A stretch of 32,000 bases of DNA from Pseudescherichia sp. (GTDB lineage Bacteria; Pseudomonadota; Gammaproteobacteria; Enterobacterales; Enterobacteriaceae). The stretch is from contig JBCNNW010000018.1 of the NCBI GenBank assembly GCA_039594205.1, positions 1 to 32,000 of the forward strand, written 5' to 3'. Numbering within the stretch: the stretch's first letter is position 1; each line of letters begins with the position of its first letter. Both the position numbers and the translations under genes were made by a program. The notes beneath the pieces are model-generated. The model worked only from the letters and a program-made list of their open reading frames with translations. It was not told where the DNA came from and made no database searches. Of the stretch, positions 4,343 through 20,297 are shown piece by piece.

Positions 4343-5077
4343 ATGTCCTTACTCGATCTAAACGCCCTTAATGAGCTGCCAAAAGTCGACCGCATTCTGG
4401 CGCTGGCAGAGACCAACGGCCAGCTGGAAAAACTGAGCGCGGAAGAGCGCGTCGTCTGGGCATTGGAGAACCTGCCTGGTGAGTACGTGCTCTCCTCAAG
4501 TTTTGGTATCCAGGCGGCGGTTAGCCTGCACCTGGTTAACCAGATCAGCCCGGATATCCCGGTGATCCTCACCGATACCGGCTATCTGTTTCCGGAGACC
4601 TACCAGTTCATTGATGAGCTGGCGGACAAGCTCAAGCTAAACCTGAAGATCTATCGCGCAGAGCAAAGCCCGGCGTGGCAGGAAGCGCGCTACGGCAAGC
4701 TGTGGGAGCAGGGCGTCGAGGGTATTGAGAAGTACAATGAGATCAACAAGGTCGAGCCGATGAACCGCGCCCTGAAAGAGCTGAAGGCACAGACCTGGTT
4801 TGCAGGCCTGCGCCGGGAGCAGTCCGGCAGCCGCGCCACGCTGCCGGTACTGGCCGTTCAGCGCGGCGTGTTCAAGGTACTGCCGATCATCGACTGGGAC
4901 AACCGTACCGTTTATCAGTATCTGCAGAAGCACGGCCTGAAGTACCACCCGCTGTGGGATCAGGGCTATCTCTCGGTGGGCGATACGCACACCACCCGCA
5001 AATGGGAGCCGGGCATGGCAGAGGAAGAGACCCGCTTCTTCGGCCTCAAGCGCGAATGCGGGCTGCACGAAGGGTGA
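4343..5077 (+). CDS. cysH: phosphoadenosine phosphosulfate (PAPS) reductase
   Basis: 244-aa ORF with the conserved C-terminal ECGLH motif and full-length similarity to E. coli CysH. Confidence 0.98.
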
Positions 5078-5093
5078 TATAACGCCCAGACGG

Positions 5094-5125
5094 AAAATGC
5101 TGACTTTTGAGTCGGCATTTTTTTT
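5094..5125 (+). terminator. rho-independent terminator of cysJIH
   Basis: Stem atgctgac (5097-5104) pairs with gtcggcat (5111-5118), including one G-U pair, and is followed by a run of 8 T. Confidence 0.8.
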
Positions 5126-5196
5126 GGGTTTTTGGCTGAGAGTGGGTGGAAGATTGATTTAGGTTAGGGCAATAGTAATAGGCAACGGTAGAATTG

Positions 5197-5337
5197 GAGT
5201 TGTCATAAGTGATTTTTTATTTTTTTATTTAAAATCAGTTCATTACGCAAAAGAGCATGAAGCGTAGTTGTTGATTATAAGTTGGTAGATTATTAATCGT
5301 TAAAAAAGCTCTTTAAAAACAATCAACTGTATTTAGA
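5197..5337 (+). promoter_or_regulatory. CRISPR array 1 leader
   Basis: AT-rich tract directly 5' of repeat 1. It contains attataagttggtagatt and gctctttaaaaa, and ends in gtatttagag at the leader-repeat junction. These motifs match my recollection of the E. coli K-12 CRISPR-I leader (candidate -10 tataag at 5276-5281). Confidence 0.7.
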
Positions 5338-6097
5338 GAGTTCCCCGCGCCAGCGGGGATAAACCGCCCGCGCTACAGTTTCACCCCCTCCGCTGGTGGA
5401 GTTCCCCGCGCCAGCGGGGATAAACCGGGTTTTTGTACTGCTCTTTTTTAGTAGATCCTGAGTTCCCCGCGCCAGCGGGGATAAACCGGTAACGGGCGAG
5501 CAGCCGCACGACTGGACGGAGAGTTCCCCGCGCCAGCGGGGATAAACCGCCACCTGCCAATCATCTGGGGCTACGCCTGTGGAGTTCCCCGCGCCAGCGG
5601 GGATAAACCGGCAAGACCGGCTTCCGGCTCGACACCAAACGCGAGTTCCCCGCGCCAGCGGGGATAAACCGAGCGGGTTTATCGTGCCGTCCAGGTTGTT
5701 TGAAAGTTCCCCGCGCCAGCGGGGATAAACCGACGTCTTTCTCTCTCACATGGATACTCACCAAAAGTTCCCCGCGCCAGCGGGGATAAACCGTCCCTTC
5801 GTTATTGTTCGTAACCAACCCCGTCAAGTTCCCCGCGCCAGCGGGGATAAACCGCCGGAGATCCTGACTGGATGAGTCAGCATTTTAAGTTCCCCGCGCC
5901 AGCGGGGATAAACTGGACGTTTCTGCTGCGGTATCGAGTGGATTTGAAAGTTCCCCGCGCCAGCGGGGATAAACCGTTTATTGATGATGATTGCTGGGTT
6001 ATTGACCCAAGTTCCCCGCGCCAGCGGGGATAAACCGCGCCAGATGTGGTTGTCGGCGGCACACCGTGTAAGTTCCCCGCGCCAGCGGGGATAACCG
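5338..6097 (+). CRISPR. CRISPR array 1, type I-E repeat GAGTTCCCCGCGCCAGCGGGGATAAACCG; 13 repeats and 12 spacers of 32 nt
   Basis: Exact 61-nt periodicity, with repeats starting at 5338, 5399, 5460 ... 6070. R1-R6 start GAG and R7-R13 start AAG. R10 carries a C>T change at 5914. The terminal R13 is 28 nt (one A is missing). Transcription on the + strand is inferred from the upstream leader, the degenerate distal repeat and the ATAAACCG 3' end of the repeat. Confidence 0.98.
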
Positions 6098-6122
6098 CGT
6101 ACTGACAGACTCCTGTACGCGG
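6095..6122. terminator. hairpin between the array 1 end and orf97 (possible weak bidirectional terminator)
   Basis: ccgcgtac (6095-6102) pairs with gtacgcgg (6115-6122) across a 12-nt loop. Only a weak T tract follows (cgcgtttaggttt). Confidence 0.25.
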
Positions 6123-6133
6123 CGCGTTTAGGT

Positions 6134-6427
6134 TTACCAGTAATAAATACTGGGACGCTTGTCAGCCAGCCAGGTAACACCATCAGGATCGACACCACGA
6201 AGAATACTGGTGAGCATCAAGCGATCGGCAGCTCGACGGCGGCGAGTGGTATTGATTCGATTCCACCAACCAGGATTTTTATCGTAATTGCAAGCCGGTG
6301 TGTTTGCTCCATATTGATCATAATGGTGGACATACATTACACCCCAGCGTGAGGGGTACTTGATACGGAAATGGGGGTTGGCTTTACCGTGACAATCACG
6401 GTCTTTTCGAGTATTGAAGTTGGACAT
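6134..6427 (-). CDS. hypothetical protein, 97 aa, family not recognised
   Basis: The ORF has a strong SD (taaaggagctaaaaATG). The protein is Trp/Arg-rich (NPGWWNRINTTRRRRAADR, C-terminal SIYYW), and no signal peptide is evident. It lies downstream of the RES-Xre pair on the same strand. Confidence 0.55.
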   Translation of the reverse strand: MSNFNTRKDRDCHGKANPHFRIKYPSRWGVMYVHHYDQYGANTPACNYDKNPGWWNRINTTRRRRAADRLMLTSILRGVDPDGVTWLADKRPSIYYW

Positions 6428-6529
6428 TTTTAGCTCCTTTACGGTAACTAGAAATGCCCTCGCTTAGGGTAGTACATGGGGTCTCCTTAATCAGTTCAGC
6501 GTAACCGGGTGCAACGTCCTTCATGGTCA

Positions 6530-7000
6530 CTACTTGCGATCGGGTTTTAACCGACTGTCGAATTGAAACGGAATGGCTTTTGATTTTTGTGTCAGCTCGA
6601 AGAAACCGGGGTGTTCAGGGTTAAGCAGATAGTTATATTCCACTGGCGATAAGGCACTCGGCACACGCAGAGCTATTGATGCCTTAGTGAAGCACCAGGC
6701 GTCACCATAAGCGGCTAGCTCCGGTGGTGCCTCTTCATCAGCCCAGTTATCAGGTACTTCTTCCATATTGGCCTTTTGAATCTGGTCATCAGGCACATCA
6801 ATACTCAACAGCGTGAAATAATCCATAATCTGTGCCGCCCGCAGGTGCACCAACGTTTCCAGCATGGTTAACGATGCCGTTTCTGATACATAAACCATCG
6901 ATGTGCCGACGCTGTTCCAGCGGCCTCCAGCCTCTTTTGCTCCATACCCCGTCCAGGCTGTAGAAAGATACTTTGTCTTTGTAAGACGATAGAGGATCAA
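6530..7000 (-). CDS. RES-domain toxin (RES-Xre type II TA; NAD+-degrading family)
   Basis: 156-aa ORF with YR...GGRWNS...VYVSETASLTMLE, the typical R/E/S signature. It overlaps the upstream antitoxin gene by 4 nt (ATGA). Confidence 0.85.
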   Translation of the reverse strand: MILYRLTKTKYLSTAWTGYGAKEAGGRWNSVGTSMVYVSETASLTMLETLVHLRAAQIMDYFTLLSIDVPDDQIQKANMEEVPDNWADEEAPPELAAYGDAWCFTKASIALRVPSALSPVEYNYLLNPEHPGFFELTQKSKAIPFQFDSRLKPDRK

Positions 7001-7440
7001 GAGTAGACCCCATGCTCCAGACGAGTGATCAGCTTCATAACCTCATAAGCTCCGGTTTCGGATGCCATCAGGTCTGCCGGCACTTTCCAGCCCAGCGCAC
7101 GGTTAGGCTCATTCAACCATTTTTGCGCTTCATCCTTATTGCCTTCAAACAACTCTACTGCCCGATCAAGGACACGAATGATGCGCACCAGCCGTTCACT
7201 TTGGTCAGCACTGAATCGCGCTTTCAAACTGCGGCTGAATGTGGTTGATGGGATACCTGACATTTTACGCAGGTCGTTTTGCGTTATCTTCGCCCAGTCA
7301 ACGATCAGGCTAGCAACCTTGCCATCCAAACCTTCATTAATCTGACCCAGCAATGCCACACCATCAGCATTGTTTAAACCAGCTACCTGCCATAAACGGG
7401 GTGGCCTGGCCTGAGTCGTAGATACGCTAAACGTTTTCAT
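6997..7440 (-). CDS. Xre-family antitoxin with DUF2384-type toxin-binding C-terminal domain (MbcA/ParS-like)
   Basis: 147-aa ORF with an N-terminal HTH-like segment and the C-terminal pattern A..W....N.ALG...P.DL. It is translationally coupled to the RES gene. Confidence 0.8.
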   Translation of the reverse strand: MKTFSVSTTQARPPRLWQVAGLNNADGVALLGQINEGLDGKVASLIVDWAKITQNDLRKMSGIPSTTFSRSLKARFSADQSERLVRIIRVLDRAVELFEGNKDEAQKWLNEPNRALGWKVPADLMASETGAYEVMKLITRLEHGVYS

Positions 7441-7464
7441 GGTTGACCTCCATTTGGTAATTTA

Positions 7465-7493
7465 ATTATATCCATATGGCGGCTTATGGGCAA
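7465..7493 (-). promoter_or_regulatory. candidate sigma70 promoter for the xre-RES operon
   Basis: On the minus strand, TTGCCC (7493-7488) is separated by 17 nt from TATAAT (7470-7465). The palindrome ccatatgg (7472-7479) in the spacer could be an operator. Confidence 0.4.
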
Positions 7494-7512
7494 ATATTAA
7501 CCGCTTGAAGTA

Positions 7513-7845
7513 TTACCCTACTAAGGCTTTAACCTTAGCTCTGATCACGTCGAGTTCCTTCTCGGTTACTCTCCCTTTTTTCGCTGCGTTTCTGACTTTC
7601 CAGGCGATGCATTTCACCTGATCGGCAAGCGCTACTGCGTTACGCTCACCGGAGAGTTCTACTTCAAAAGGGTAGCCCTTTGCCTTTGTGGTACAGGGAA
7701 CACAAAGGCAAAGCCCTGTTTTATTGTTATAGATGAATGTGCTTAGCACCACGGCAGGCCAATGCTCTGCCTGCTCATTTCCTTTAGTTAGGTCAAAATC
7801 AACCTATATAAGATCCCCTGAGTCAGGTACAAATTGAATTATTAT
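7513..7845 (-). pseudogene. mazF: mazF/chpA-family endoribonuclease toxin, inactivated
   Basis: The frame reads IIIQFVPDSGDLI*VDFDLTKGNEQAEHWPAVVLSTFIYNNKTGLCLCVPCTT..., colinear with E. coli MazF (MVSRYVPDMGDLIWVDFDPTKGSEQAGHRPAVVLSPFMYNNKTGMCLCVPCTT...). A TAG at 7806-7804 replaces the conserved Trp codon, and ATA sits where ATG is expected. Only a 79-aa GTG-initiated C-terminal ORF remains (7513-7752). Confidence 0.8.
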
Positions 7846-8094
7846 TTACCAGGCTTCCTTACCTTCAGGTTTACCCCATTCCACCAGATCATGTTGGTTA
7901 TCGGCGGTGATCTCTTCAACTAGTTCCGCAAGCGAAAACTCAGATCCGCTCCTTACTGGCTCGATAACAAGCTTACCTTCAACCAAATCGATCTGAACTT
8001 CATCATCAATATTAAGATTAAGAGCCTGCATTAACGTTGCTGGGATCCGGATCGCAGGAGAGTTTCTCCAGCGTTTAACATTAACTCGGATCAT
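7846..8094 (-). CDS. mazE: MazE antitoxin (AbrB/SpoVT fold)
   Basis: 82-aa [45 protein letters not shown] is close to E. coli MazE as recalled, and the gene appears full length. Confidence 0.9.
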
Positions 8095-8353
8095 ATCAAC
8101 CTCATCGCAATTATATAGTAACTACATCGTAGATTTTACGCAGTGAAAATACAATCTGTCGAACTCTCATTTTAATCTGTTGCTAATCTCTTCTGCACGC
8201 GCCATAAAAATAGATGGCTTAACATAGCTAACTATTTTTAATATTTAGTTGCATAAAACTACACTATCTTTATCTTTCCCGGTTGCGGCTGAGGGCATGT
8301 TTCTACACCATCTATAAATAATACTATTGCGTCACTTTATATTGAGGTGATGA
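8095..8353. promoter_or_regulatory. AT-rich divergent control region between mazE and cas3
   Basis: 259-bp AT-rich gap. The candidate cas3 promoter is TTGCAT (8249-8254), a 16-nt spacer, then TATCTT (8271-8276). On the other strand there is a TATAAT-like box close to the mazE start. In E. coli and Salmonella, equivalent regions are H-NS/LeuO controlled (established knowledge; not visible here). Confidence 0.35.
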
Positions 8354-11053
8354 ATGAATTTTGACGCAAGCTATCTTGGTTATTGGGGCAAGTCCAAAAA
8401 AACAATAACTACAGGCGATAATTATCATCTGCTGGTTTATCACTGCCTGGATGTTGCCGCATGTGGATACGTAATGGCAAGTGAAAACCGGTTTGGAATA
8501 CATAATGTGCTTGCAGAATTGGGACTCGCCTCGGACTTTGGGTATCGCTGGATAAGCTATCTTTTCGCCAGCCATGACTTAGGTAAATTTGCTAATGGTT
8601 TTCAGCGGTTAGCTGTTCATCCGGATTCTCCGCTGGTTAAGCCTGCAGCGGGTATTAATACACCCGCCCGTCATGATACGCTGGGCTTCTGGCTATGGGA
8701 TAAGCTAGCAACCGACTGGCTCGAAGAGATTCATGGCATTTTCCCTGAAATACCTTCTTACCAGCGTGAACAGTTTATTTATGCCTTGGATATCTGGATA
8801 GCAATAAGTACCGGTCATCACGGTATTCCGCCAGATAAACCGGACAATCGCTGCGTCACAGCTTTTACGAGGCAGGATATTCATGCGGCTAGTGAATATT
8901 TCACTGCGCTACGCGATCTCTTCACCATTAATAATTTCCCTGATGAATGGAAAACAAAATCGTGGCGCAAAAAGCTAAAACAGCATAGTTGGTTTTTAGC
9001 GGGAATGATGACCCTGGCTGACTGGCTGGGATCGGATGAAAATAACTTCTCTTTTAATAGCCAACCCATGCCGCTTGCAGAGTATTGGCATATTGCCTGT
9101 GAGAAAGCGAACAAAGCGCTGTCCACTCTCCCACATGCCTCAATTACCAGCCGCTACGATGGGCATAAGGCGCTGTTCCCCTTTATCGATTCGCTGACGC
9201 CGCTCCAACAGCGTGCGGTTAATCTTGATATTTCACCCACAGGTCCTCAGCTCATTGTGCTGGAGGACGTTACAGGCGCGGGCAAAACAGAAGCAGCGAT
9301 GATACTTGCTCATCGTCTGATGTCAGCCGGTAAGGGAAAGGGACTGTACGTTGGATTGCCAACGATGGCGACCTCAAACGCCATGTATCAGCGGCTGGGA
9401 AAAGCGTACCGCAAACTGTTCTCTGATGCAGCACGACCTTCGCTGGTGCTGGCGCACGGTGCCCGGCATATGTCGACTGCGTTTCGCCAGTCGGTCTGGC
9501 AGACAGATGAAAGCCAGGACGCCTATTACGCCCAAAATGATGCCAGCGCCGTCGCGGAGTGTAATACATGGTTTGCTGACTCACGTAAAAAGGCGCTGCT
9601 GGCTGAGGTAGGCGTAGGCACGCTGGACCAGGTATTAATGGCGGTCATGCCCTTTCGTCACCAGTCGCTGCGCCTGCTCGGATTGCATGACAAAGTGCTT
9701 ATCCTTGATGAGGTGCACGCCTACGATGGCTACATGGTTAAGCTGCTGGAAGGGCTGCTGTGGTTTCATGCGGCCCAAGGCGGAAGCGCTATTGTTTTAA
9801 CCGCTACGCTTCCGGCAACACTCCGGGAGAAGCTGCTGGTGGCCTTTGCGGAAGGGGCTGGTTTTGCTGTGGCTAACCCCAGTCTTAATGCGGGCTATCC
9901 CTGGTTAAGCCATCTATCCTCAACGGGATTGCAGGAGCACCCATTGCAGACGCGGCAGGAGGTTAAGCGCTGCGTTGCTGTTAACTGGTTAAGCGATATT
10001 GAGCACGCCCTGGAGATTATCTACCGCGTAGTTGAAGCAGGGCAGTGCATCTGCTGGGTGCGAAATACCGTTGATGATGCGCTCATGGTTTTCCTGCGTC
10101 TGTTGAACGATGGAAAGATAGCCCAGCAGGATCTCCTGCTATTTCATAGCCGCTTTGCCTATGCCGATCGTATGACGATTGAAGAGAACACGCTGGCCTG
10201 GTTTGGCAAAGATGCCTCGCCGGAGCAGCGTCGCGGCAAGGTGCTGATCGCAACCCAGGTCGTGGAGCAGAGCCTCGATCTCGATTTCGACTGGATGATC
10301 TCCGACCTGGCGCCTGTCGATCTCCTGATCCAGCGTGCAGGAAGGTTGCAGCGCCACATTCGCGATGCGCAGGGCGCCTGTAAATCGAGCCTGCCCGATG
10401 AACGTCGCTCCCCGGTACTGCATATTTTGGCTCCTGAATGGCAGGAGGAGGCACAGGATGGCTGGCTGGGAGAAACCCTGCGCGGTACAGGATATGTCTA
10501 TACCGATCACGCTTGCTTGTGGCGAACGCAGAAACTGCTGCACCAGTACGGTGAAATCAAAATGCCAGAGATGGCGCGAACGTTAATTGATGGCGTATAT
10601 GAAGCCAAAATTCCCGCGCCACCAGGCCTGCAACGCATTGAGGGTAACGTCTTTGGCGCACTGCTCAGCCAGCGCGCGGCCGCCAAACAAAATCTGCTGC
10701 AACGTGATAAAGGCTATCACCGCGATGCCAGCGATTTTCTTTGGGACGAGGGACGTGAATTTTCTACTCGCCTGGGCGAGGCCAGTGTAGATGTCTATCT
10801 CGCCTGGCTGGACAGCGATCGGCAGCTTCAGCCAGCAATGAATGAAGGCGAGTTTCGCTGGGAGATGAGTCGCGTACAGGTGCGAGCCAGCTGGTGGAAG
10901 CAAAACATATCCCGTCTTTCCTTGCCGGATGATGACCAACTGGAAGCATTCCGTAAGCGGCAGCATCGACCCGCTGCGCAGGTATTACTGGTCTCTGAGC
11001 AGGGGGAAGCAGCGTATTACAGCAAGCGGTTTGGGTTAACTACAGAATCTTAA
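8354..11053 (+). CDS. cas3: type I-E Cas3 HD nuclease / SF2 helicase
   Basis: 899-aa ORF with HD motifs (YHCLDVAA, SHDLGKF) and helicase motif I GAGKTEAA, motif II LDEVHAYD and motif VI QRAGRLQRH. Confidence 0.97.
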   Translation: MNFDASYLGYWGKSKKTITTGDNYHLLVYHCLDVAACGYVMASENRFGIHNVLAELGLASDFGYRWISYLFASHDLGKFANGFQRLAVHPDSPLVKPAAGINTPARHDTLGFWLWDKLATDWLEEIHGIFPEIPSYQREQFIYALDIWIAISTGHHGIPPDKPDNRCVTAFTRQDIHAASEYFTALRDLFTINNFPDEWKTKSWRKKLKQHSWFLAGMMTLADWLGSDENNFSFNSQPMPLAEYWHIACEKANKALSTLPHASITSRYDGHKALFPFIDSLTPLQQRAVNLDISPTGPQLIVLEDVTGAGKTEAAMILAHRLMSAGKGKGLYVGLPTMATSNAMYQRLGKAYRKLFSDAARPSLVLAHGARHMSTAFRQSVWQTDESQDAYYAQNDASAVAECNTWFADSRKKALLAEVGVGTLDQVLMAVMPFRHQSLRLLGLHDKVLILDEVHAYDGYMVKLLEGLLWFHAAQGGSAIVLTATLPATLREKLLVAFAEGAGFAVANPSLNAGYPWLSHLSSTGLQEHPLQTRQEVKRCVAVNWLSDIEHALEIIYRVVEAGQCICWVRNTVDDALMVFLRLLNDGKIAQQDLLLFHSRFAYADRMTIEENTLAWFGKDASPEQRRGKVLIATQVVEQSLDLDFDWMISDLAPVDLLIQRAGRLQRHIRDAQGACKSSLPDERRSPVLHILAPEWQEEAQDGWLGETLRGTGYVYTDHACLWRTQKLLHQYGEIKMPEMARTLIDGVYEAKIPAPPGLQRIEGNVFGALLSQRAAAKQNLLQRDKGYHRDASDFLWDEGREFSTRLGEASVDVYLAWLDSDRQLQPAMNEGEFRWEMSRVQVRASWWKQNISRLSLPDDDQLEAFRKRQHRPAAQVLLVSEQGEAAYYSKRFGLTTES

Positions 11054-11071
11054 CTTCGCAGGAGCATACTA

Positions 11072-12631
11072 ATGGATCTAACAACGGAGGGATGGTTGCC
11101 TGTTGTTATGCAAGATAATGCCAGGCTAAAAATCCCCCTCACCAATATTTTCGATGACGATATCTTTGACGTCAGCTATCCCCGTGCGGATTTCCAGGGA
11201 GCGGCGTGGCAGATGCTGATTGGCCTGCTGCAAACTACCGTTGCTCCCGAAGATGAGGAGGAGTGGCGGGAGGTATGGAACAGTGGTATCGATAATCAAA
11301 CGTGGCAAAACGCACTCTCGACCGTAGCGCCTGCAATGCAGTTCGGTGCAGAAAAGCCGGCCTTTCTGCAAAGTCTTGAGCCGCTTGAGAGCGAAAACAG
11401 CTCTATTGCTGGCCTGTTAATTGATGCCCCCGGCGGCAATACGCTGAAGCTCAACAAAGACCATTTCGTAAAACGCCACGTTGGACAACAGATCTGCCCT
11501 CATTGTGCAGTAATGGCCCTTTTTGCGGTGCAAACCAATTCGCCTGCAGGTGGGGCAGGGTATCGCGTGGGTCTACGCGGCGGTGGCCCCTTAACCACGC
11601 TGGTGGTGCCACAGCAGGAGCGTGATTTCCCGTTGTGGAAAAAACTTTGGCTCAACGTAATCCCGGAAGAGCAGCGTCCGGCCTCTTCGCAATTCGCCGC
11701 TATTTTCCCCTGGCTTGCCCCAACGAAGACCAGTGAGAAGGCCGGAAATATCGTAACGCCAGACAATGCGCATGTGTTGCAGGCTTACTGGGGAATGCCA
11801 CGACGGATCGAACTGGATTTCGAGAAAACGGTAGAAGGAAGCTGCGATCTCTGTGGAGAGCATCATCCGGCGTTGCTACGGGAGATGCGTACTAAAAACT
11901 ATGGCGTGCAGTACGACGGCTGGCAGTATCCGCTCTCTCCCTACCGACAGGCGCTAAAGGATCAGGCAGCTCCGTGGCTGGCGCTAAAAGGGCAGCCCGG
12001 TGGGCTGAGCTATAAAGACTGGTTGGGTCTGACGCTTAATAGTGAAGACAAATTTAACCGTACACAGCCTGCTCGGGTAGTGCAAAAGCTTCCGAGGCGG
12101 CTACCCGCGACGGGCCTGTGGTGCTTCGCCTGGGATATGGATAACGCCAAAGCCCGTTGCTGGTATCAGCATCGTATTCCCTTAATGAACACCCCTGATG
12201 CAAAACTGCTTAGCAGCGTCATGCAGCAAACGCTACAGCTTGCCACCGACTCGCTTCGTCTCCTTAAGCAGTGGCTGAAGGCGGCATGGTTTTCGACACC
12301 CAGTGAAGCCAAAGTTGATTTTAGCCAGCTTGATACCGCTTTCTGGCAAGAGACTGAGCCTGCATTTCGTCAGCTACTGGAAGCGCTGAGCAGCGATCCT
12401 GCCCGGGAAAATTCACTCACCCGCGAAATATTAAGAGAGTGGGAAAAGCGTCTACATCACGAGGTGATGAATTTTTTCGATCGCGATGTATTCACCGATC
12501 CAGACTGCGATGATGGCACGCTGCTGCGCCAGCTGACTGCCAGAAGCAAGCTGGATCGGGATTACGACAAGCTAAAAACACGCACGCAATTCTTGGATCT
12601 CGCTAAAGAGGCGGAGGAGCAAAATGCTTAG
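11072..12631 (+). CDS. casA: Cascade large subunit Cse1/CasA (Cas8e)
   Basis: 519-aa ORF with an SD (aggag) 7 nt upstream. Its position right after cas3 and its size match Cse1. The N-terminal WLPV... motif is typical of Cse1. Confidence 0.9.
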   Translation: MDLTTEGWLPVVMQDNARLKIPLTNIFDDDIFDVSYPRADFQGAAWQMLIGLLQTTVAPEDEEEWREVWNSGIDNQTWQNALSTVAPAMQFGAEKPAFLQSLEPLESENSSIAGLLIDAPGGNTLKLNKDHFVKRHVGQQICPHCAVMALFAVQTNSPAGGAGYRVGLRGGGPLTTLVVPQQERDFPLWKKLWLNVIPEEQRPASSQFAAIFPWLAPTKTSEKAGNIVTPDNAHVLQAYWGMPRRIELDFEKTVEGSCDLCGEHHPALLREMRTKNYGVQYDGWQYPLSPYRQALKDQAAPWLALKGQPGGLSYKDWLGLTLNSEDKFNRTQPARVVQKLPRRLPATGLWCFAWDMDNAKARCWYQHRIPLMNTPDAKLLSSVMQQTLQLATDSLRLLKQWLKAAWFSTPSEAKVDFSQLDTAFWQETEPAFRQLLEALSSDPARENSLTREILREWEKRLHHEVMNFFDRDVFTDPDCDDGTLLRQLTARSKLDRDYDKLKTRTQFLDLAKEAEEQNA

Positions 12632-13214
12632 CAGCAACACAGCACAGGTGTGCATATTTACCGAGCCTGCAGCGCAAAAGGTGCTCACGGAGTGGTTTGA
12701 TATTTTATCGGATCGCTACGGTAAGCAGGATGATAAACGGATCAACGGTCGCGCATGGCGAGCGGAGCTACGCCGGATGGAGCCGCCCTACGGTGTCATG
12801 ATGTGCGAAGGGTATGCCGATCTACGACGCAAGCTCCAGCTGCAAATGTCGCTCCAGCCCGTTGACCAGATGGCGCTGGCGATATTTGTTTCGGTCGCAG
12901 TGTACGTAAAAAATCATAATGCTTACCCCAGCTTTGCCGCCCAGCTCGGGCAGAAAACTAACGACCGACCCTGTCTTTCACGTCTGCGTTTTGAACGTCT
13001 GCAGCAGGCTACCGATCCTGAGAGCTTTTGCCAGCAGTTGACACGTGCCGTCCGGCTTCGGGGCGATGACGGGGTCAATATCGTCTCGCTGGCAGATGGC
13101 ATATTTCTATGGATGCGTGAATGGCAGGCCCGCGAAGAGCACCAGCCAGAATCGATCGATCCCTTCTCCCGTAACCGTATTCGCTGGGCGAATGAGTATC
13201 TCTCAGCCCGCTAG
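12624..13214 (+). CDS. casB: Cascade small subunit Cse2/CasB (Cas11e)
   Basis: 196-aa ORF that overlaps the casA end by 8 nt, with an SD (ggagg) upstream. It is the positional equivalent of Cse2. The start codon choice is uncertain (long compared with about 160 aa in E. coli). Confidence 0.85.
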   Translation: MLSSNTAQVCIFTEPAAQKVLTEWFDILSDRYGKQDDKRINGRAWRAELRRMEPPYGVMMCEGYADLRRKLQLQMSLQPVDQMALAIFVSVAVYVKNHNAYPSFAAQLGQKTNDRPCLSRLRFERLQQATDPESFCQQLTRAVRLRGDDGVNIVSLADGIFLWMREWQAREEHQPESIDPFSRNRIRWANEYLSAR

Positions 13215-13236
13215 TTATTTTTGATAAGGACTTATA

Positions 13237-14295
13237 ATGACTACGTTTATTCAGCTTCACTTTCTTACTGCTTATGCACCCTCTAACCTCAACCGGGATG
13301 ACTCCGGTCGACCAAAAACGGCCAAAATGGGCGGTGTGGAACGTCTTCGCGTCTCTTCTCAGAGTCTGAAACGTGCCTGGCGAGTATCAGAAACCTTTGA
13401 GTCGGCAATGGACGGGCATATCGGCGAGCGCACGCGACTTTTGGGCGTTAAGTATGTCCATCAGCCAATGACTGCCGCAGGCGTGAGTGAAAAAATAGCA
13501 AAAGCTGCAGCGGAAAAAATTGCCGGTCAGTTTGGAAAAGTAAAAAATGATAAAGGTGCTGCACCCGTTAAGAACCTGGAAATTGAGCAGCTGGTACACG
13601 TCAGCACGCATGAGATTGCCCTCATCAAACAGCTGGTGGACACGCTGATTAGCGAAAACCGTGAACCTGTAGACGAGGAGCTAAAGCTGCTGCGCAAAGA
13701 GCAGCATAGCGTTGATATGGCGCTGTTTGGGCGTATGTTAGCTTCCTCTCCTGCTTTTAATGTTGAGGCCGCTTGCCAGGTTGCTCATGCATTAGGCGTT
13801 AGCGCCGTGACCATTGAAGATGATTTCTTTACGGCGGTGGACGATCTCAATACGGGTGAAGAGGATAAAGGTTCGGCTCATATGGGCGAACAGGGTTTTG
13901 CTTCCGCACTCTTCTATAGCTACATCTGTATTAGTCGCGATCTGCTGGTTAAAAACCTTGATGGTGATGAGGATCTGGCCCGGCGCGCCATCGCGGCGCT
14001 GACTGAAACCGCGCTGACCGTATCGCCTGGCGGAAAACAGAACAGTTTCGCCTCACGCGCTTATGCCTCCTATGCACTGGCAGAAATGGGCACTAAGCAA
14101 CCTCGCTCGCTGGCGGTAGCATTTTTCCAGCCCGTGCGGGGCGAAAACCTCCTGCCAACGGCGATTGAACGCCTGAAGCATCAGCGCGACAACTTTGATC
14201 GCGTCTATGGTCAGTGTGTGGATCGCCACTATGAGCTGAACGCCGATAAAGGTGAGGGATCGTTATCCGCGCTGCTGGAGTTTGTGAGCCAATAA
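13237..14295 (+). CDS. casC: Cascade backbone subunit Cas7e/CasC
   Basis: 352-aa ORF. The N-terminal sequence LHFLTAYAPSNLNRDDSGRPKT is the Cas7e signature. Confidence 0.95.
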   Translation: MTTFIQLHFLTAYAPSNLNRDDSGRPKTAKMGGVERLRVSSQSLKRAWRVSETFESAMDGHIGERTRLLGVKYVHQPMTAAGVSEKIAKAAAEKIAGQFGKVKNDKGAAPVKNLEIEQLVHVSTHEIALIKQLVDTLISENREPVDEELKLLRKEQHSVDMALFGRMLASSPAFNVEAACQVAHALGVSAVTIEDDFFTAVDDLNTGEEDKGSAHMGEQGFASALFYSYICISRDLLVKNLDGDEDLARRAIAALTETALTVSPGGKQNSFASRAYASYALAEMGTKQPRSLAVAFFQPVRGENLLPTAIERLKHQRDNFDRVYGQCVDRHYELNADKGEGSLSALLEFVSQ

Positions 14296-14304
14296 GGATA
14301 GAGA

Positions 14305-15030
14305 ATGAAGCAATATCTGGTTTTTCAGCTCTATGCGCCGTTGGCCGCCTGGGGTGAAGAGGCCGTAGGGGAAATGCGACATACTGCACACGTTCCAACG
14401 CGATCGGCCATTCTGGGCCTGCTTGCAGCGGCTCAGGGCATTTGCCGCGAAGAAGAAGAGGCGCTGAATAAGTTTAACCAACACTATCATTTGGCGATAC
14501 GACCGCTCTCCTCATGTGAGCGCTGGCTGCGGGATTATCACACCGTTAGTATGCCGCGCGAGAATAAGAAGTATCACTACTATACCCGGCGGGATGAGCT
14601 GCGGCTGGCTCCTGATGATATAGGTACCATCGTTACACAGCGAGAGTATCGCTGTGATGGTTACTGGCACGTTGCGGTCAGTGCAACAGAAGGAGCACCG
14701 GTGCCACTGGAGATACTTCGCGATTCGCTTATCAAGCCACATTTTCCGCTCTATCTGGGGCGCAAATCTTGCCCACTGGCCCTGCCGCTCGCCCCCCGGC
14801 TGCTGGAAGGAACGCTCAAGCAGATTTTTAACCAGGCCGCTGAGCAACTCACCGCGTCAGAATTGATGATGATTGCCCAGGGGGGAGAGACATGCTACTG
14901 GGACGATCCTGACGAAAGCAGTCTGGTATGGCAAACGCAGCAGCACTGCAATAATCAGCCTGTCAGCCGCCGACGCTGGCAGTTTGGTCGCTATATTCGC
15001 TATAGCGGGTCGCTCAGGGAGGGAGAATAA
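14305..15030 (+). CDS. casD: Cas5e/CasD
   Basis: 241-aa ORF with LVFQLYAPLAAWGE..., LRDYHTV and YLGRKSCP motifs typical of Cas5e. Confidence 0.92.
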   Translation: MKQYLVFQLYAPLAAWGEEAVGEMRHTAHVPTRSAILGLLAAAQGICREEEEALNKFNQHYHLAIRPLSSCERWLRDYHTVSMPRENKKYHYYTRRDELRLAPDDIGTIVTQREYRCDGYWHVAVSATEGAPVPLEILRDSLIKPHFPLYLGRKSCPLALPLAPRLLEGTLKQIFNQAAEQLTASELMMIAQGGETCYWDDPDESSLVWQTQQHCNNQPVSRRRWQFGRYIRYSGSLREGE

Positions 15031-15737
15031 TGTACCTGTCGCGCATACAGCTTCACCTCGATCGCCTGCAACCGGGCATGTTGCAAAAATGGACGCATGC
15101 CGCACCTTATGCCAGTCACCAATGGCTATGGCAGCTTTTTCCAGATTGTGACGAACGCCACTTTCTGTTTCGTCAGGAGCCGCAGGCGCGCTTTTTTATG
15201 CTTTCACAGACAGCGCCTGTTCAACAGCACGACCTGTTTACAATTGAGACCAAACCTTTTACCCCGGCATTGAACGAGGGGCAGCAGCTTGATTTCCAGC
15301 TGCGCGCAAACCCGGTTGTCTGTCGTGATAAAAAACGTTCGGATGTATTAATGAACGCCAAGTTCCAGGCTAAAGCAGAGAATATTGCCAGTGAAAAGTG
15401 GTGGGGATTACAGGTCGATGCGGCGCAGTCCTGGCTAGAAAAGCAGGGCGAGCAGCATGGTTTTCGTCTGGTTGCGCCTGCGGTCGATGATTTTGCCGTA
15501 TGGGCCGATGCCGATGGCGCAGATGAGCCAGCGTCGGCAAGAGTAAGCGTGCTGGCCTATCAGCAGCATCGTTTCCAGCGCAGGCAGGGTGAAAGCCCCA
15601 TCGTCTACAGCAGCGTTGACTATGCCGGAGCGCTGGTGATCACCGATCCCAACCGTTTTTCCCAGGCACTCTTTAATGGTATCGGCAAAAGTAAATCCCT
15701 GGGATGCGGCATGCTGATGGTTAAAAGGCGGCGTTAA
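15030..15737 (+). CDS. casE: Cas6e/CasE crRNA endoribonuclease
   Basis: 235-aa ORF with N-terminal MYLSRIQL, the segment FQLRANPV, and the C-terminal G-rich loop GIGKSKSLGCGMLMV. Confidence 0.92.
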   Translation: MYLSRIQLHLDRLQPGMLQKWTHAAPYASHQWLWQLFPDCDERHFLFRQEPQARFFMLSQTAPVQQHDLFTIETKPFTPALNEGQQLDFQLRANPVVCRDKKRSDVLMNAKFQAKAENIASEKWWGLQVDAAQSWLEKQGEQHGFRLVAPAVDDFAVWADADGADEPASARVSVLAYQQHRFQRRQGESPIVYSSVDYAGALVITDPNRFSQALFNGIGKSKSLGCGMLMVKRRR

Positions 15738-16654
15738 TGAGCTGGATACCTCTGAACCCCATCCCACTTAAAGATCGCGTCTCAATGATTTTTTTGCAAT
15801 ACGGTCAGATTGATGTGATTGACGGTGCGTTTGTGCTCATCGATAAAACCGGCGTGCGGACGCATATCCCGGTCGGATCCGTGGCCTGCATTATGCTTGA
15901 GCCTGGTACCCGGGTCTCTCATGCTGCGGTACGACTGGCGGCTACGGTAGGTACGCTGCTGGTTTGGGTGGGGGAGGCGGGTGTCCGGCTATACGCGACA
16001 GGGCAGCCGGGCGGTGCGCGTTCCGATCATCTGTTATACCAGGCGAAGCTGGCGCTTGATGAGAATCTGCGGCTAAAGGTGGTACGCAAAATGTTCGAGT
16101 TACGTTTTGGCGAACCACCTCCGGCACGGCGTTCAGTTGAACAGTTACGCGGCATTGAAGGAAGTCGGGTACGCGCAACATACACCCTATTAGCCAAGCA
16201 GTATGGCGTTAAGTGGCATGGGCGCCGGTACGATCCTAAGGATTGGGAAAAGGGTGATGTAGTTAATCAGTGCATTAGTGCTGCAACGGCATGTCTTTAT
16301 GGTGTTACCGAGGCCGCAGTGCTGGCGGCAGGCTATGCGCCAGCCATTGGTTTTGTCCATACCGGTAAGCCGCTCTCTTTTGTTTATGATATTGCCGATA
16401 TCATTAAATTTGATACCGTCGTGCCGAAAGCATTCGAGATCGCACGGGGCAATCCTGCCGAGCCAGATCGTGAAGTAAGGCTGGCGTGTCGTGATATTTT
16501 CCGCAGTAGTAAAACCCTCGCAAAACTGATCCCGCTAATTGAAGACGTGCTGGCCGCTGGTGAGATCTCCCCACCGCTGCCGCCCGCTGATGCGCAACCC
16601 ATTGCTATTCCTCTTCCTGCCAGCCTCGGCGACGCTGGGCACAGGAGCACATAA
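15737..16654 (+). CDS. cas1: Cas1e integrase
   Basis: 305-aa ORF, nearly colinear with E. coli K-12 Cas1 as recalled (PLNPIPLKDRVSMIFLQYGQIDVIDGAFVLIDKTG ... GFVHTGKPLSFVYDIADIIKF). Confidence 0.97.
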   Translation: MSWIPLNPIPLKDRVSMIFLQYGQIDVIDGAFVLIDKTGVRTHIPVGSVACIMLEPGTRVSHAAVRLAATVGTLLVWVGEAGVRLYATGQPGGARSDHLLYQAKLALDENLRLKVVRKMFELRFGEPPPARRSVEQLRGIEGSRVRATYTLLAKQYGVKWHGRRYDPKDWEKGDVVNQCISAATACLYGVTEAAVLAAGYAPAIGFVHTGKPLSFVYDIADIIKFDTVVPKAFEIARGNPAEPDREVRLACRDIFRSSKTLAKLIPLIEDVLAAGEISPPLPPADAQPIAIPLPASLGDAGHRST

Positions 16655-16951
<297 letters not shown>

Positions 16952-17035
16952 GTTAGTGCTCTTTAAAAAAGTGAAAAAATCGGTAGGATTTTTGGTAGTG
17001 ATAAAATTATTTTAATTCAATGATGTATGTTTAGA
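16952..17035 (+). promoter_or_regulatory. CRISPR array 2 leader
   Basis: AT-rich 84 bp between the cas2 stop and repeat 1. It contains gctctttaaaaaa and ttggtag, and ends in atgtttagag. It shares the leader-repeat junction motif with leader 1 and with the K-12 leader as recalled. Confidence 0.7.
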
Positions 17036-18150
17036 GCGTTCCCCACATGCGTGGGGATAAACCGCTTCTGAAAATTGGGGTGGCACAGCATTTCCGGCGT
17101 TCCCCACATGCGTGGGGATAAACCGGCTCTCAGGCCGCAGAATCAATGGGTGTAAAAGCGTTCCCCACATGCGTGGGGATAAACCGTATACAGGATGCAG
17201 TATGCAGATAACGAAAATGCGTTCCCCACATGCGTGGGGATAAACCGGCGCGCGCGCAGAGGGATGTGCAGGTGGGCATGCGTTCCCCACATGCGTGGGG
17301 ATAAACCGCAGCTGTATCAACTCTACGCGCTGAATGAAACGCGTTCCCCACATGCGTGGGGATAAACCGCGCACGATCCCATCACCAAAAAATGACCATT
17401 TGCGTTCCCCACATGCGTGGGGATAAACCGGGGAGATTCCAGATAACCATCACGGAGGCGAAGCGTTCCCCACATGCGTGGGGATAAACCGGGCCAGTTT
17501 CCCGGCCCGCCCTTTTTTAGTGGGCGTTCCCCACATGCGTGGGGATAAACCGCTTGTTGGCCGGTCCTGCATCACCTTTTTCAGGCGTTCCCCACATGCG
17601 TGGGGATAAACCGAGTCTTTTTACAATCTGGAAAAATGGGCAGCAGCGTTCCCCACATGCGTGGGGATAAACCGGTTAGGCGGTTTGTACTTTGGCACGA
17701 CAATAAGCGTTCCCCACATGCGTGGGGATAAACCGCCATACGGGAAACGCTCCTGATCCACAGGGGCGCGGTGGGGATAAACCGAATAATTTGGCCATTT
17801 GTTGCAGCAGTTGCGTGCGTTCCCCACATGCGTGGGGATAAACCGCCAGCAGCGTTACCCTGCGCCAGATTCACTGTGCGTTCCCCACATGCGTGGGGAT
17901 AAACCGCACGCCCGGGATGACAGCAAACGCAGCTATACGCGTTCCCCACATGCGTGGGGATAAACCGCTGCAAATGCAGGTACAGGCTGAGAACGAGCTG
18001 CGTTCCCCACATGCGTGGGGATAAACCGGCTCAGCTAGGCGAGGGGGAGGGAGGGTCTGTGCGTTCCCCACATGCGTGGGGATAAACCGCGCCGGCACTC
18101 CATACCAGACGGCAACAGCCAGCATTCCCCACATGCGTAGAGATAAACCT
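17036..18150 (+). CRISPR. CRISPR array 2, variant type I-E repeat GCGTTCCCCACATGCGTGGGGATAAACCG; 19 repeats and 18 spacers of 32 nt
   Basis: 61-nt periodicity, with repeats starting at 17036, 17097 ... 17707, then 17817 ... 18122. R13 (17768-17784) is only 17 nt because of an internal 12-nt deletion. The terminal R19 (18122-18150) has 4 mismatches. The leader lies on the cas2 side. Confidence 0.98.
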
Positions 18151-18275
18151 TACCGTTTACCAGTATCTGCAGAAGTATGGCCTGAGGTACCACCCGTAAA
18201 TGGGAGCCGGGCATGGTAGAGGAAGAGACCCGCTTCTTCGGCCTCAAGCGCGAATGCGGACTGCACGAAGGGTGA
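18151..18275 (+). pseudogene. cysH: cysH 3'-terminal fragment (second, dead copy)
   Basis: This segment aligns with 4906-5077. By hand alignment there are 7 mismatches in 125 aligned nt plus a 47-nt deletion that creates an in-frame TAA. It reads [15 protein letters not shown] then, in another frame, [25 protein letters not shown]. Confidence 0.9.
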
Positions 18276-18293
18276 TATAACGCACCGGACGGA

Positions 18294-18324
18294 AAATGCT
18301 GACTTTAGGGTCGGCATTTTTTTG
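18294..18324 (+). terminator. duplicate copy of the cysH terminator
   Basis: atgctgac (18296-18303) pairs with gtcggcat (18310-18317), followed by a T run. It is homologous to 5094-5125. Confidence 0.7.
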
Positions 18325-18414
18325 GCTGAGAGTAGGAGGTAAGAAATTTAGGATAGGGTCAGGGTTGAAAGTAGCGGTAGAATCGAAATAGTTGGTGGAT
18401 ATAGGGTATGTGAA

Positions 18415-18870
18415 ATGAAGAGAGTATTACCAGGTATTGCTTTTTCCCTGCTGTATTTTCCCATGCTGGCTAGCGCTGCACTATATGAAGGCTCAGAGGC
18501 AAAAGCCTGTTTTGCTCAGCATGCTGATCCGAATCAGCAAGAAAAATGCCTTCAACAGAAAAAAAACGAGAGCGAATCACAGTTGGAAGGCGTCATTATA
18601 GAAACAAACAAAAACATTAAGGCTAATAACGTCGGTTTATTTAACGGAAAAGAAGACGCAGCAGAAACGTCAGGAGAGGTATACAGCAAACGTTTCTTAA
18701 ATGCCCAAAAGCTATGGAAGCAGTATAGAAAAAATCTATGCCTGGCAGTGGCCACAGAGATTAATGAAGATGCTTACGATTACCAAGCATTCATTGATCA
18801 GTGCGAGATTAATCTCAACAAAAGGCATATAGAAGAAATAAAAATGATGGGTATCCTTCCCGCCTCGTGA
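18415..18870 (+). CDS. secreted DUF1311 (LprI-like) domain protein
   Basis: 151-aa ORF with an N-terminal signal peptide (MKRVLPGIAFSLLYFPMLASA). Conserved Cys residues and the pattern FLNAQKLWKQYRKNLC match the DUF1311 signature L..Q..W..YR...C. The gene is visibly AT-rich. Confidence 0.7.
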   Translation: MKRVLPGIAFSLLYFPMLASAALYEGSEAKACFAQHADPNQQEKCLQQKKNESESQLEGVIIETNKNIKANNVGLFNGKEDAAETSGEVYSKRFLNAQKLWKQYRKNLCLAVATEINEDAYDYQAFIDQCEINLNKRHIEEIKMMGILPAS

Positions 18871-18931: not shown

Positions 18932-19166
18932 ATGAAATGCCCTATCTGTGGCGGTGCAGATCTTAAACATGAAACCCGTGACGTTGAATACGAGTATAAA
19001 GGCCGTAAAACTACGGTATACGGTATTACCGGCGACTATTGCGATGCGTGTGGAGAGAGCATCTTAGATGATGACGCTGGCGAAACGTATATGGCGGCAA
19101 TCGGCACTTTTAATCGCGAGACTCGATAAGCACCCCGAAATTTTTGAAGAGCTAAAGCAAGCTTAA
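18932..19166 (+). pseudogene. mqsA: mqsA-family antitoxin with the HTH domain deleted; a 65-aa zinc-ribbon ORF remains (18932-19129)
   Basis: MKCPICGG...YCDACGESI is the YgiT/MqsA N-terminal CxxC...CxxC zinc ribbon. After the stop, a different frame reads LDKHPEIFEELKQA* (19122-19166), which matches the extreme C-terminus of MqsA (LDKHPELLNEIR). This implies an internal deletion of about 50 codons plus a frameshift. Confidence 0.65.
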
Positions 19167-19194
19167 TCTACTCCGACTAACTACAGCACTCATC

Positions 19195-19250: not shown

Positions 19251-20297
19251 TCAGGCACCTTTCTCCGCCTTCGCCAGCTCCTTCATCAGCGGCAGCATAA
19301 TACGCATCACGTCGCGGCTGCGGCGCTCAATGCGGCCGGGCAGAGCGTTATCGAGGAACTGCTGGTTATCCAGACGCACATTATGCCAGCTGGTGCCGTC
19401 GGGAAACGCTTTGGTCTTTGCCCGCTGCTGGTAGCCATCCTTTTTCCCCAGCGACCAGTTCGTAGCCTCGACGGAGAGCACCGGGATACCTGCGCGATCG
19501 AACACTTCGCTGTCGTGGCAGCAGTCGGTGCCTTTCGGATAGTCCGGGTTCAGGCCTGGATTCGTAGTGGCAGTAATACCGTGCTGGCGAGCAATGGCTA
19601 AAGCGCGATCCCGGGTCAGCTTGCGCACCGCAGCAGGCGTGCTTTTGCCACTGTTGAAGTAGAGCTTATCGCCGACGATCAGGTTATCGAGGTTGATCAC
19701 CAGCAAGGTGTTTTTCTTCTCGGCGTCGCTCATGCGCTGCAACAGATTCTCCGCCCCCATCCGTCCCTCCTCTTCACCGCTGGTGGCGATGAAACGAATG
19801 CCGTACTGAGTCTGCATATGCTTCATCTGGTCAGCCAGCTCCAGCATCACCCCCAGCCCGGCGGCGTTATCGTCGAGGCCCTGTAACGTCAGGCCGCCAA
19901 GGTTGTTATCGCTATCGGCATCGCTGCGCGGCGCGTAGGTATCGAGATGCGCCATCACAATGATCTGCTGAGCCAGCTTGCCTTCATGGGCGGCAATCAC
20001 CGTACTGCCGGTCACGTTGTGCCAGTTCTGGTTCTTATTGCGTGAGGTATAGATGTAGCGGCTGTTGAACTTGCGGATGTTGCTCTGGTAGCCCATCTGT
20101 TCAAACTGCTGGCGCAGATAGTCGGCTGAAAGCATCTCTGCAGGCGTACCGGTCATACGGCCAGGAAAATAGGTGGCAATGTGGCGAGCCTGCTCGCTGG
20201 CCATCTCGCCAGGCTGGCTGGATTTTGCCTGCGCAGGCACGGTAAAGCACACACCGAGCGCCAGAGCTATAGCAAGATGGCGCAATGCGGGAAACAT
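19251..20297 (-). CDS. iap: alkaline phosphatase isozyme conversion aminopeptidase (M28)
   Basis: 348-aa ORF colinear with E. coli Iap as recalled (MF.ALRH...ALALGVCF, ARHIATYFPGRMTGTPAEMLSADY, WHNVTGSTVIAAHEG). Confidence 0.95.
   Translation of the reverse strand: MFPALRHLAIALALGVCFTVPAQAKSSQPGEMASEQARHIATYFPGRMTGTPAEMLSADYLRQQFEQMGYQSNIRKFNSRYIYTSRNKNQNWHNVTGSTVIAAHEGKLAQQIIVMAHLDTYAPRSDADSDNNLGGLTLQGLDDNAAGLGVMLELADQMKHMQTQYGIRFIATSGEEEGRMGAENLLQRMSDAEKKNTLLVINLDNLIVGDKLYFNSGKSTPAAVRKLTRDRALAIARQHGITATTNPGLNPDYPKGTDCCHDSEVFDRAGIPVLSVEATNWSLGKKDGYQQRAKTKAFPDGTSWHNVRLDNQQFLDNALPGRIERRSRDVMRIMLPLMKELAKAEKGA

Follow-up and report, generated by a model that had tools for sequence, protein, structure and literature searches.

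How did a broken copy of the cysH 3' end come to lie beside the last repeat of a CRISPR array, 13 kb away from the intact gene? The question is raised by the window, as we call the whole stretch of 32,000 nucleotides analysed here. The window was assigned to Pseudescherichia from relatives of its DUF1311 protein, Cse1, Cas3 and CysD. The initial annotation had described positions 18151-18384 as a diverged, dead copy of the cysH 3' end. It had offered two origins for this copy, acquisition of the block from a donor with another cysH allele or an old segmental duplication, and it had predicted one-step loss of the immune locus by recombination between the copies. From the comparisons reported below, we consider it likely that 18151-18384 is a non-functional cysH 3' relic that marks the seam of two cassettes joined in tandem.

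Organization of the cysH-iap interval

The left part of the window carries cysJ, cysI, cysH, leader 1, array 1, orf97, RES-Xre and mazEF. The cas operon, leader 2, array 2, the cysH relic, a DUF1311/LprI-like gene, a truncated mqsA, iap and cysDNC follow on the right. Intact cysH (4343-5077, + strand) encodes a PAPS reductase of 244 aa (NCBIfam TIGR02057, E = 3e-100), identical to the CysH protein of the CRISPR-less contig L001 (relatives are designated by L numbers). Leader 1 (5195-5338, + strand) aligns to L007, L011, L033 and L047 and has the conserved end AAAAAGCTCTTTAAAAACA...TTTAGAG before the first repeat. It is followed by array 1 (5339-6099, + strand), with 13 repeats of family D2 (GAGTTCCCCGCGCCAGCGGGGATAAACCG) at a spacing of 61 nt. 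The cargo, on the - strand (6134-8094), consists of orf97, a RES toxin, an Xre antitoxin, a dead mazF and mazE (NCBIfam NF049844, NF049845 and NF007312). The cas operon (8354-16951, + strand) reads cas3-cse1-cse2-cas7-cas5-cas6e-cas1-cas2. Its genes were assigned from open reading frames and NCBIfam matches for Cas3 and Cas2e, and further from Pfam labels on homologous loci. This gene order, the 29-nt repeats and the position between cysH and iap identify the locus as type I-E. Leader 2 (16952-17035, + strand) has 100% identity in L005 and L035. Array 2 (17036-18150, + strand; repeat GCGTTCCCCACATGCGTGGGGATAAACCG, family D1) ends in a degenerate repeat at 18122-18150. Beyond the relic lies the DUF1311/LprI-like gene (18415-18870, + strand; Pfam PF07007, E = 1.6e-4), which in CRISPR-less relatives is found next to intact cysH.

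The repeats of the two arrays differ, GAGTTCCCCGCGCCAGCGGGGATAAACCG in array 1 and GCGTTCCCCACATGCGTGGGGATAAACCG in array 2, the latter having a compensatory change from G-C to A-U in the hairpin stem and another loop. Relatives that we group here as pure Q (L033, L011, L015) contain the array 1 repeat type only and no array 3' of cas2. Array 2 also includes an irregular unit (17736-17816), in which a repeat has lost its 5' half. What is left of it, GTGGGGATAAACCG (about 17772-17785), is fused to the spacer before it, and this produces a 171-nt gap in the 61-nt periodicity. In the cargo, mazF (7513-7845, - strand) is dead through a start codon changed from ATG to ATA and a codon 14 changed from TGG to TAG, its substitutions being clustered at the 5' end. 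mazE is intact (7846-8094), and the close relative L035 has an intact MazF of 110 aa. orf97 (6134-6427, - strand) had no Pfam or NCBIfam match and is conserved at 86-91% nucleotide identity in L007, L011, L015 and L033, adjoining RES-Xre at the array 1 end.

The cysH relic

Arm A of the direct repeat (4901-5194, + strand) comprises the last 172 nt of cysH, the stop codon, the terminator and the downstream spacer, and aligns to 18146-18383. A formal pairwise alignment, using local alignment and a repeat finder, recovered both arms. Positions 18146-18196 correspond to 4901-4951 at 90% over 51 nt, and 18189-18283 to 4991-5085 at 97% over 95 nt. Downstream, 18285-18323 matches 5086-5124 at 92% and 18319-18339 matches 5129-5149 at 90%. 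When the cysH end was compared with the window by BLAST, the E values were 5e-59 and 1.6e-14, well past chance. The seven mismatches that had been counted by hand in 125 aligned nucleotides (18151-18275 against 4906-5077) proved exact. They fall at 4915, 4931, 4933, 4941, 4999, 5019 and 5062, so that 118 of the 125 coding nucleotides are identical to the parent gene. The last three of these positions flank or lie near the longest perfect identity between the arms, a block of 42 nt at 5020-5061 (+ strand), equivalent to 18218-18259.

The coding relic (18151-18275, + strand) cannot encode the protein: it is without the first 563 nt of cysH, carries a frame-shifting deletion of 47 nt and reads ...RYHP*. 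As had been proposed, the missing 47 nt (within 4944-4998, + strand) are bounded in the intact gene by a direct repeat, ACCACCCG, at 4944-4951 and 4991-4998. The accompanying statement that the deletion creates an in-frame TAA is half of the story. The frame shift is needed, but so is a C-to-T change at the equivalent of 4999, and relatives with the identical 47-nt deletion and C at that position read CAA.

Homology continues, as first described, through the original stop codon (TGA, 18273-18275) and the terminator hairpin. The relic retains both, together with about 110 nt of downstream spacer (18276-18384, + strand), and the similarity fades out at GGTAGAAT (5187-5194 and 18376-18383). In each copy a GC-containing hairpin is predicted, followed by a tail of seven to eight U residues. 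The hairpin lies at 5092-5123 (+ strand) in copy A and, with its U-run, at about 18291-18323 in copy B. Fold energies are -20.2 kcal/mol for copy A and -16.4 kcal/mol for copy B, each with z = -5.3, and a pattern-based terminator scan lists copy A only.

At its left edge copy B does adjoin the terminal repeat of array 2, as the initial annotation had it, but the boundary is not one sharp base. The five nucleotides at 18146-18150 (+ strand), AACC(T), are at once the end of the terminal repeat and the counterpart of cysH bases 4901-4905 (AACCG), which amounts to a 5-nt overlap, AACC(G/T). The block from leader 1 to array 2, 13.2 kb long, was rightly said to lie between direct repeats; these are imperfect and about 290 nt long.

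The sequence after the last repeat was also considered as a spacer against cysH, encoding a self-targeting crRNA, and was rejected by reasoning only. It has no downstream repeat to supply a 3' handle, the stem of the terminal repeat is broken (GTAGAG instead of GTGGGG), and the cysH target is preceded by a repeat-like CCG, which is not a PAM.

Two cassettes and two spacer types

The spacer of roughly 110 nt that follows the cysH stop codon exists in two allele types, which we call Q and P. The copy-A spacer carries the Q marker AAGATTGATTTAGGTTAGGG, in common with L007 and copy A of L047, and the spacer of the pure-Q contig L033 carries a near-identical marker, AAGATTGATTTAGGATAGGG. The copy-B spacer carries the P marker GTAAGAAATTTAGGATAGGG, as in P genomes; it has 100% identity to L001 and 94-95% to L023, L024 and L005. 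Within the window, the spacers of copies A and B have 84% identity, beside an adjacent coding stretch at 97%, which argues that two haplotypes have been set in tandem and not that one sequence was duplicated internally. With a Q-type spacer in copy A and a P-type spacer in copy B, the relic would be the scar left by two events, a homologous exchange and an illegitimate join. A foreign-allele signal is therefore present, the two spacers matching different pure haplotypes. Of the two origins first offered, acquisition from another cysH allele is favoured over segmental duplication, with the amendment that the foreign signal resides in the copy-A spacer and not, as suggested, in the copy-B coding sequence. 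The copy-A spacer of L047 resembles the P type as far as the T-run, so the spacer alleles must have exchanged some sequence.

The two spacer types belong to two cassettes, each of which normally stands directly 3' of cysH in Pseudescherichia. The Q cassette consists of leader 1, array 1, toxin-antitoxin genes, cas and array 2. The P cassette consists of an optional gene of 302 aa for a peptidoglycan-binding protein and then the DUF1311/LprI-like gene. Among relatives we found four arrangements: Q, P, Q then P, and P then Q, and both mergers have a cysH relic at the seam. In pure Q (L033/L034), cysH is followed by spacer, leader 1 and array 1, with neither DUF1311 nor a relic, and the right end reads cas2, a 164-aa ORF and iap. 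The matching right end of a Q' variant, L045, reads cas2, leader 2, one repeat, mqsRA and iap. Pure P, seen in L006 (P. vulneris NBRC 102420), L023 and L001, has cysH, spacer, the optional 302-aa gene, DUF1311, mqsA and iap, and no CRISPR. The parental haplotypes thus occur separately, pure Q in L033 and L045 and pure P in L006 and L023, and their markers segregate as predicted for a seam. The window and five counterparts are Q then P, and in them the relic separates array 2 from the P spacer. In L007 the order is P then Q, and an independent, more decayed cysH relic, beginning near cysH 4975, separates DUF1311 from the spacer, leader 1 and array 1. L011, L015 and L018 have the same order as L007, with the relic nearly erased. 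As this mirror-image haplotype has a relic of its own, such mergers have happened at least twice at cysH-iap.

Taken together, the interval holds CRISPR-Cas, four toxin-antitoxin families and the LprI-like gene in at least four arrangements. Judged by gene content, it is a cassette-swapping hot spot in Pseudescherichia. Pseudescherichia genomes with an identical CysD (L039/L040, L041/L043, L016/L017 and L045) have yet other contents between cysH and iap: HigBA with a leader 1 remnant and two repeats, RES-Xre alone after cysH, a DUF4225 gene, and mqsRA.

A single origin of the junction

Five other independent Q-then-P assemblies, from differing sources, contain the junction: L005/L027 (GCA_032055545.1), L024 (GCA_032082985.1), L025 (a JGI metagenome), L044 (GCA_002403705.1) and L046/L047 (GCA_032009985.1). 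In all five the degenerate terminal repeat is joined at AACC(G/T) to TACCGTTTACCAG, and all five share with the window relic the same 47-nt deletion and the CAC-to-TAT and AAG-to-AGG/AGA changes. At this otherwise non-homologous junction, the repeat end and cysH 4901-4905 share the microhomology AACCG. It is conserved as AACC(G/T) in the six junction versions, and L005 and L044 keep the G. An identical junction and deletion in five independent assemblies implies that the join arose once and is old. This bears out the view that the duplication was not very recent, as junction, deletion and substitutions are common to assemblies whose flanks are 92-96% identical; over flanking core genes, the window has that identity to all other sampled lineages. 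We take the aligned junctions to demonstrate a single origin of the seam haplotype, common to at least six lineages.

Among Q-then-P genomes, copy A was seen in the window and L047 only. In L047 the locus is again complete and includes both copies (A at 6194-6488, B at 19379-19631, matching at 87% and 82%), and it has HigBA as cargo instead of orf97-RES-Xre. Copy-B sequences of different lineages differ from one another by 1-5 nt per 95, and from copy A of their own genome by 3 per 95 in the window and 5 per 95 in L047. Ongoing gene conversion between the copies is unsupported by these counts, the B copies being nearer to each other (1-5/95) than to their own A (3-5/95). Moreover, the copy-B relics carry private decay mutations, lineage by lineage, which would fit a drifting pseudogene.

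No cysH relic was found in E. coli: a search of 5,426 complete genomes with the relic matched nothing but the resident cysH, with one match each in 5421 genomes, which shows that the type I-E locus of E. coli does not include it. Nor was one found at the type I-E loci between cysH and iap in Klebsiella and Enterobacter.

Proposed merger

We propose that the tandem arrangement required two events. One would be a homologous exchange in a shared flank, either cysJIH or mqsA-iap-cysDNC. The other would be an illegitimate join of the CRISPR repeat end to cysH 4901-4905 by way of the AACCG microhomology. The join may have been made directly on the chromosome, by the process for which PMC6382021 uses the term homology-facilitated illegitimate recombination. 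By the other route, which the initial annotation proposed, a fragment would first have formed a circle and then entered through one crossover of the Campbell type. Both routes would yield the same product, and the sequences are equally compatible with either. They are likewise compatible with each direction of the merger: Q DNA entering a P genome, P DNA entering a Q genome, or a circular intermediate.

Once formed, the Q-then-P haplotype would have spread among lineages by homologous recombination. Between Q-then-P lineages, DUF1311 has 97-98% identity and iap 92-93%. Moreover, the cas genes are mosaic: the window matches L024 at 97% in cse2 and 84% in cas6e, and the relation to L005 is reversed. 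These figures indicate that the merged haplotype moved horizontally between lineages, and this movement blurs reasoning about ancestral states. In the comparison of L035 (2347-7618) with the window (8354-13214), orf97-Xre and cas7-cas2 have 95-99.7% identity and cas3-cse1-cse2 only 85-87%; a gap of 433 nt between cas3 and cse1 in L035 is also present in L005. Such jumps in identity within the cas operon of L035 place recombination breakpoints inside the operon.

Probable loss of the CRISPR-Cas block

Homologous recombination between the two arms would remove the whole 13.2-kb CRISPR-Cas/toxin-antitoxin block in one step, and would leave cysH whole again, joined to the P-type spacer. L001 has this structure: its cysH leads directly to the P-type spacer and DUF1311. 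It belongs to the window's own lineage, as cysI, cysH, DUF1311 and iap have 99.2-99.6% identity between the two, and the flanks 99.3-99.6%. At 4999 and 5019 L001 has the A-type base, and from 5062 on it is B-type, the switch falling within the 42-nt block at 5020-5061. Over about 260 nt to the left and to the right of the joint, it differs by a single nucleotide from the A-by-B deletion product constructed in silico. Another lineage has one and the same DUF1311 protein, P0121, in the CRISPR-less L023 and in the CRISPR-bearing L024 and L025, and the lineage-specific spacer is identical in all three. The one-step loss predicted at the outset is therefore matched, as an A-by-B recombinant, by L001 and L023. 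Both are short-read Logan contigs, and their structure would also fit a gain of the block. For this reason, we regard the origin of L001 and L023 by deletion between the arms as probable on their sequence, short of proof. CRISPR-less relatives with the cysH fragment beside DUF1311, which would have separated the duplication from the island, were not seen; such relatives have an intact cysH at that place.

The two contigs might instead represent the original empty site, the state before a homologous gain of the island, or an assembly jump across the repeat. We think this unlikely, although it has several points in its favour. The contigs are short (4.3 and 18.8 kb), they fit island gain by homologous recombination between conspecifics, and the Q-then-P haplotype has clearly moved between lineages. 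Furthermore, sample SRR17780394 holds both L035, a Q-then-P cas contig, and L003, which starts inside the cysH 3' end (of the live gene or of a relic) and runs through the P-type spacer into DUF1311. Their presence in one sample could reflect a mixed population or an assembly across the repeat of 75-95 nt. On the other hand, an unbranched contig across a repeat of at least 75 nt is unexpected from a genome that holds both copies. The L001 switch lies in the longest perfect block (42 nt), and its joint otherwise matches the window over about 520 nt. Finally, in two lineages the CRISPR-less spacer equals the lineage's own copy-B spacer. Deletion guarantees such a match, whereas gain needs a right-hand crossover within about 100 nt.

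Exact-protein look-ups with the window's CysH and Cse1 returned one contig each, so the sampling of populations of its species is thin. The deletion reading carries a testable prediction: loss of immunity should be recA-dependent and scar-free, with crossovers in the defined 42-nt block. It is tempting to go further and see in the cysH' repeat a recurrent ejection site that drives the presence and absence of CRISPR-Cas in Pseudescherichia, the AACCG ends perhaps being preferred sites for illegitimate joins; this remains speculative, and we would not expect it to hold. If it did, presence and absence would mainly reflect precise repeat-by-repeat excision and homologous re-acquisition at the seam.

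Alternative explanations of the relic

The relic could have been kept because it is used, its terminator ending transcription of array 2 and its spacer providing the DUF1311/LprI-like gene with a promoter. All six copy-B versions retain the hairpin and U-run despite decay elsewhere, and a promoter-like site precedes the gene at 18365-18392 (+ strand; 9 of 12 positions in a consensus scan, a pattern match only). However, the coding stub, which would have no such role, is equally retained. In addition, the spacer is native to the DUF1311 cassette, where it forms the upstream region, so that its conservation is expected anyway. Lying 3' of array 2, the relic terminator may end pre-crRNA transcription, but as a reason for the persistence of the relic we find use rather doubtful. 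It would in any case add to the seam model and not replace it.

An intragenomic tandem duplication, running from cysH 4906 to the end of array 2 and followed by differential loss that left the cysH' stub, has in its favour the direct-repeat geometry and a left end at microhomology, which looks like a duplication junction. We judge it very unlikely. The two spacers are of different allele classes, with 84% identity beside 97% in the coding stretch, and each matches another pure haplotype. The scheme also requires at least three events and leaves the mirror-image P-then-Q haplotype, with its own relic, unexplained.

Flanking repeats of this kind arise where an island integrates at the 3' end of a gene and brings along a copy that makes the gene whole again. 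A site-specific integrative island targeting the cysH 3' end and bringing a replacement 3' end, with the two copies as attL and attR, would account for such repeats and for a block present or absent between close relatives, yet it can practically be dismissed: only cas, toxin-antitoxin genes and orf97 were found in 5078-18150, with no integrase, recombinase or excisionase among open reading frames and NCBIfam and Pfam matches; the repeat is long and imperfect, its left edge being a CRISPR repeat; the cargo varies (RES-Xre or HigBA) while the seam is constant; and in other genera this type I-E locus occupies that site with no such repeat. In place of a short exact repeat at both ends, the arms are about 290 nt long with mismatches and indels, and their longest exact block, the 42 nt described above, is internal and away from the edges. 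Lacking both an integrase and an exact core, the relic fails as the mark of a site-specific island.

Relation to known systems

Homology-facilitated illegitimate recombination combines one homologous anchor with a microhomology join. The merger that we favour has the same elements: one flank common to the partners (cysJIH or iap-cysDNC), a 5-nt microhomology, AACCG, at the other junction, and foreign and resident alleles left side by side. It differs in that the seam is deduced from natural genomes, and in that the illegitimate join lies inside the anchor gene, so that part of this gene is duplicated and no resident DNA is deleted. With tRNA/tmRNA-type islands, which duplicate the 3' end of their target, the locus has in common a live gene completed by the island-adjacent copy, a dead fragment at the far end, and direct repeats that permit precise loss. 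Unlike them, it lacks an integrase and a short exact core; it has repeats of about 290 nt with 84-97% identity, and a CRISPR repeat forms its far boundary. The type I-E loci between cysH and iap of other genera share the chromosomal site, the order and orientation of the cas genes, the 29-nt repeats and the 61-nt period, but are without the cysH' relic. Only the window, in that comparison, has two arrays with different repeats, toxin-antitoxin cargo and an extra DUF1311 cassette.

Our literature search found no description of a cysH duplication or relic at a CRISPR array, nor of Pseudescherichia CRISPR loci. The relic is a well-resolved example of a known recombination scar and not a new mechanism. 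At cysH-iap the seams remain readable, and they provide a sequence-level account of how a complete CRISPR-Cas system could enter a chromosomal hot spot by merger, and later be lost from it, without mobile-element machinery. This may be of use for studies of CRISPR-Cas gain and loss, and the relic can serve as a phylogenetic marker with which one CRISPR-Cas haplotype is traced across species.

Genes adjoining the P-type spacer

The 302-aa gene of the P cassette, with a weak peptidoglycan-binding domain (PF01471), stands between the P-type spacer and DUF1311 in L005 (9096-10004), L006, L007 and L044. In the window, L001, L023-L025, L046/L047, L011 and L015-L018, DUF1311 directly follows the spacer. 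Within the window group (window, L001, L023-L025 and L046/L047), DUF1311 starts after ...GTATGTGAAATG and has a new 5' end (window 18384-18420).

The ORF 3' of DUF1311 (18932-19129) corresponds to the N-terminal half of the MqsA antitoxin, 65 of 131 positions, and is not accompanied by mqsR; L045 has a full mqsRA pair where the window has the truncated mqsA. The same region of the window includes a divergent patch (18944-19182), with 30 differences in about 240 nt to the otherwise 99% identical L001, a pattern that suggests a separate recombination tract.
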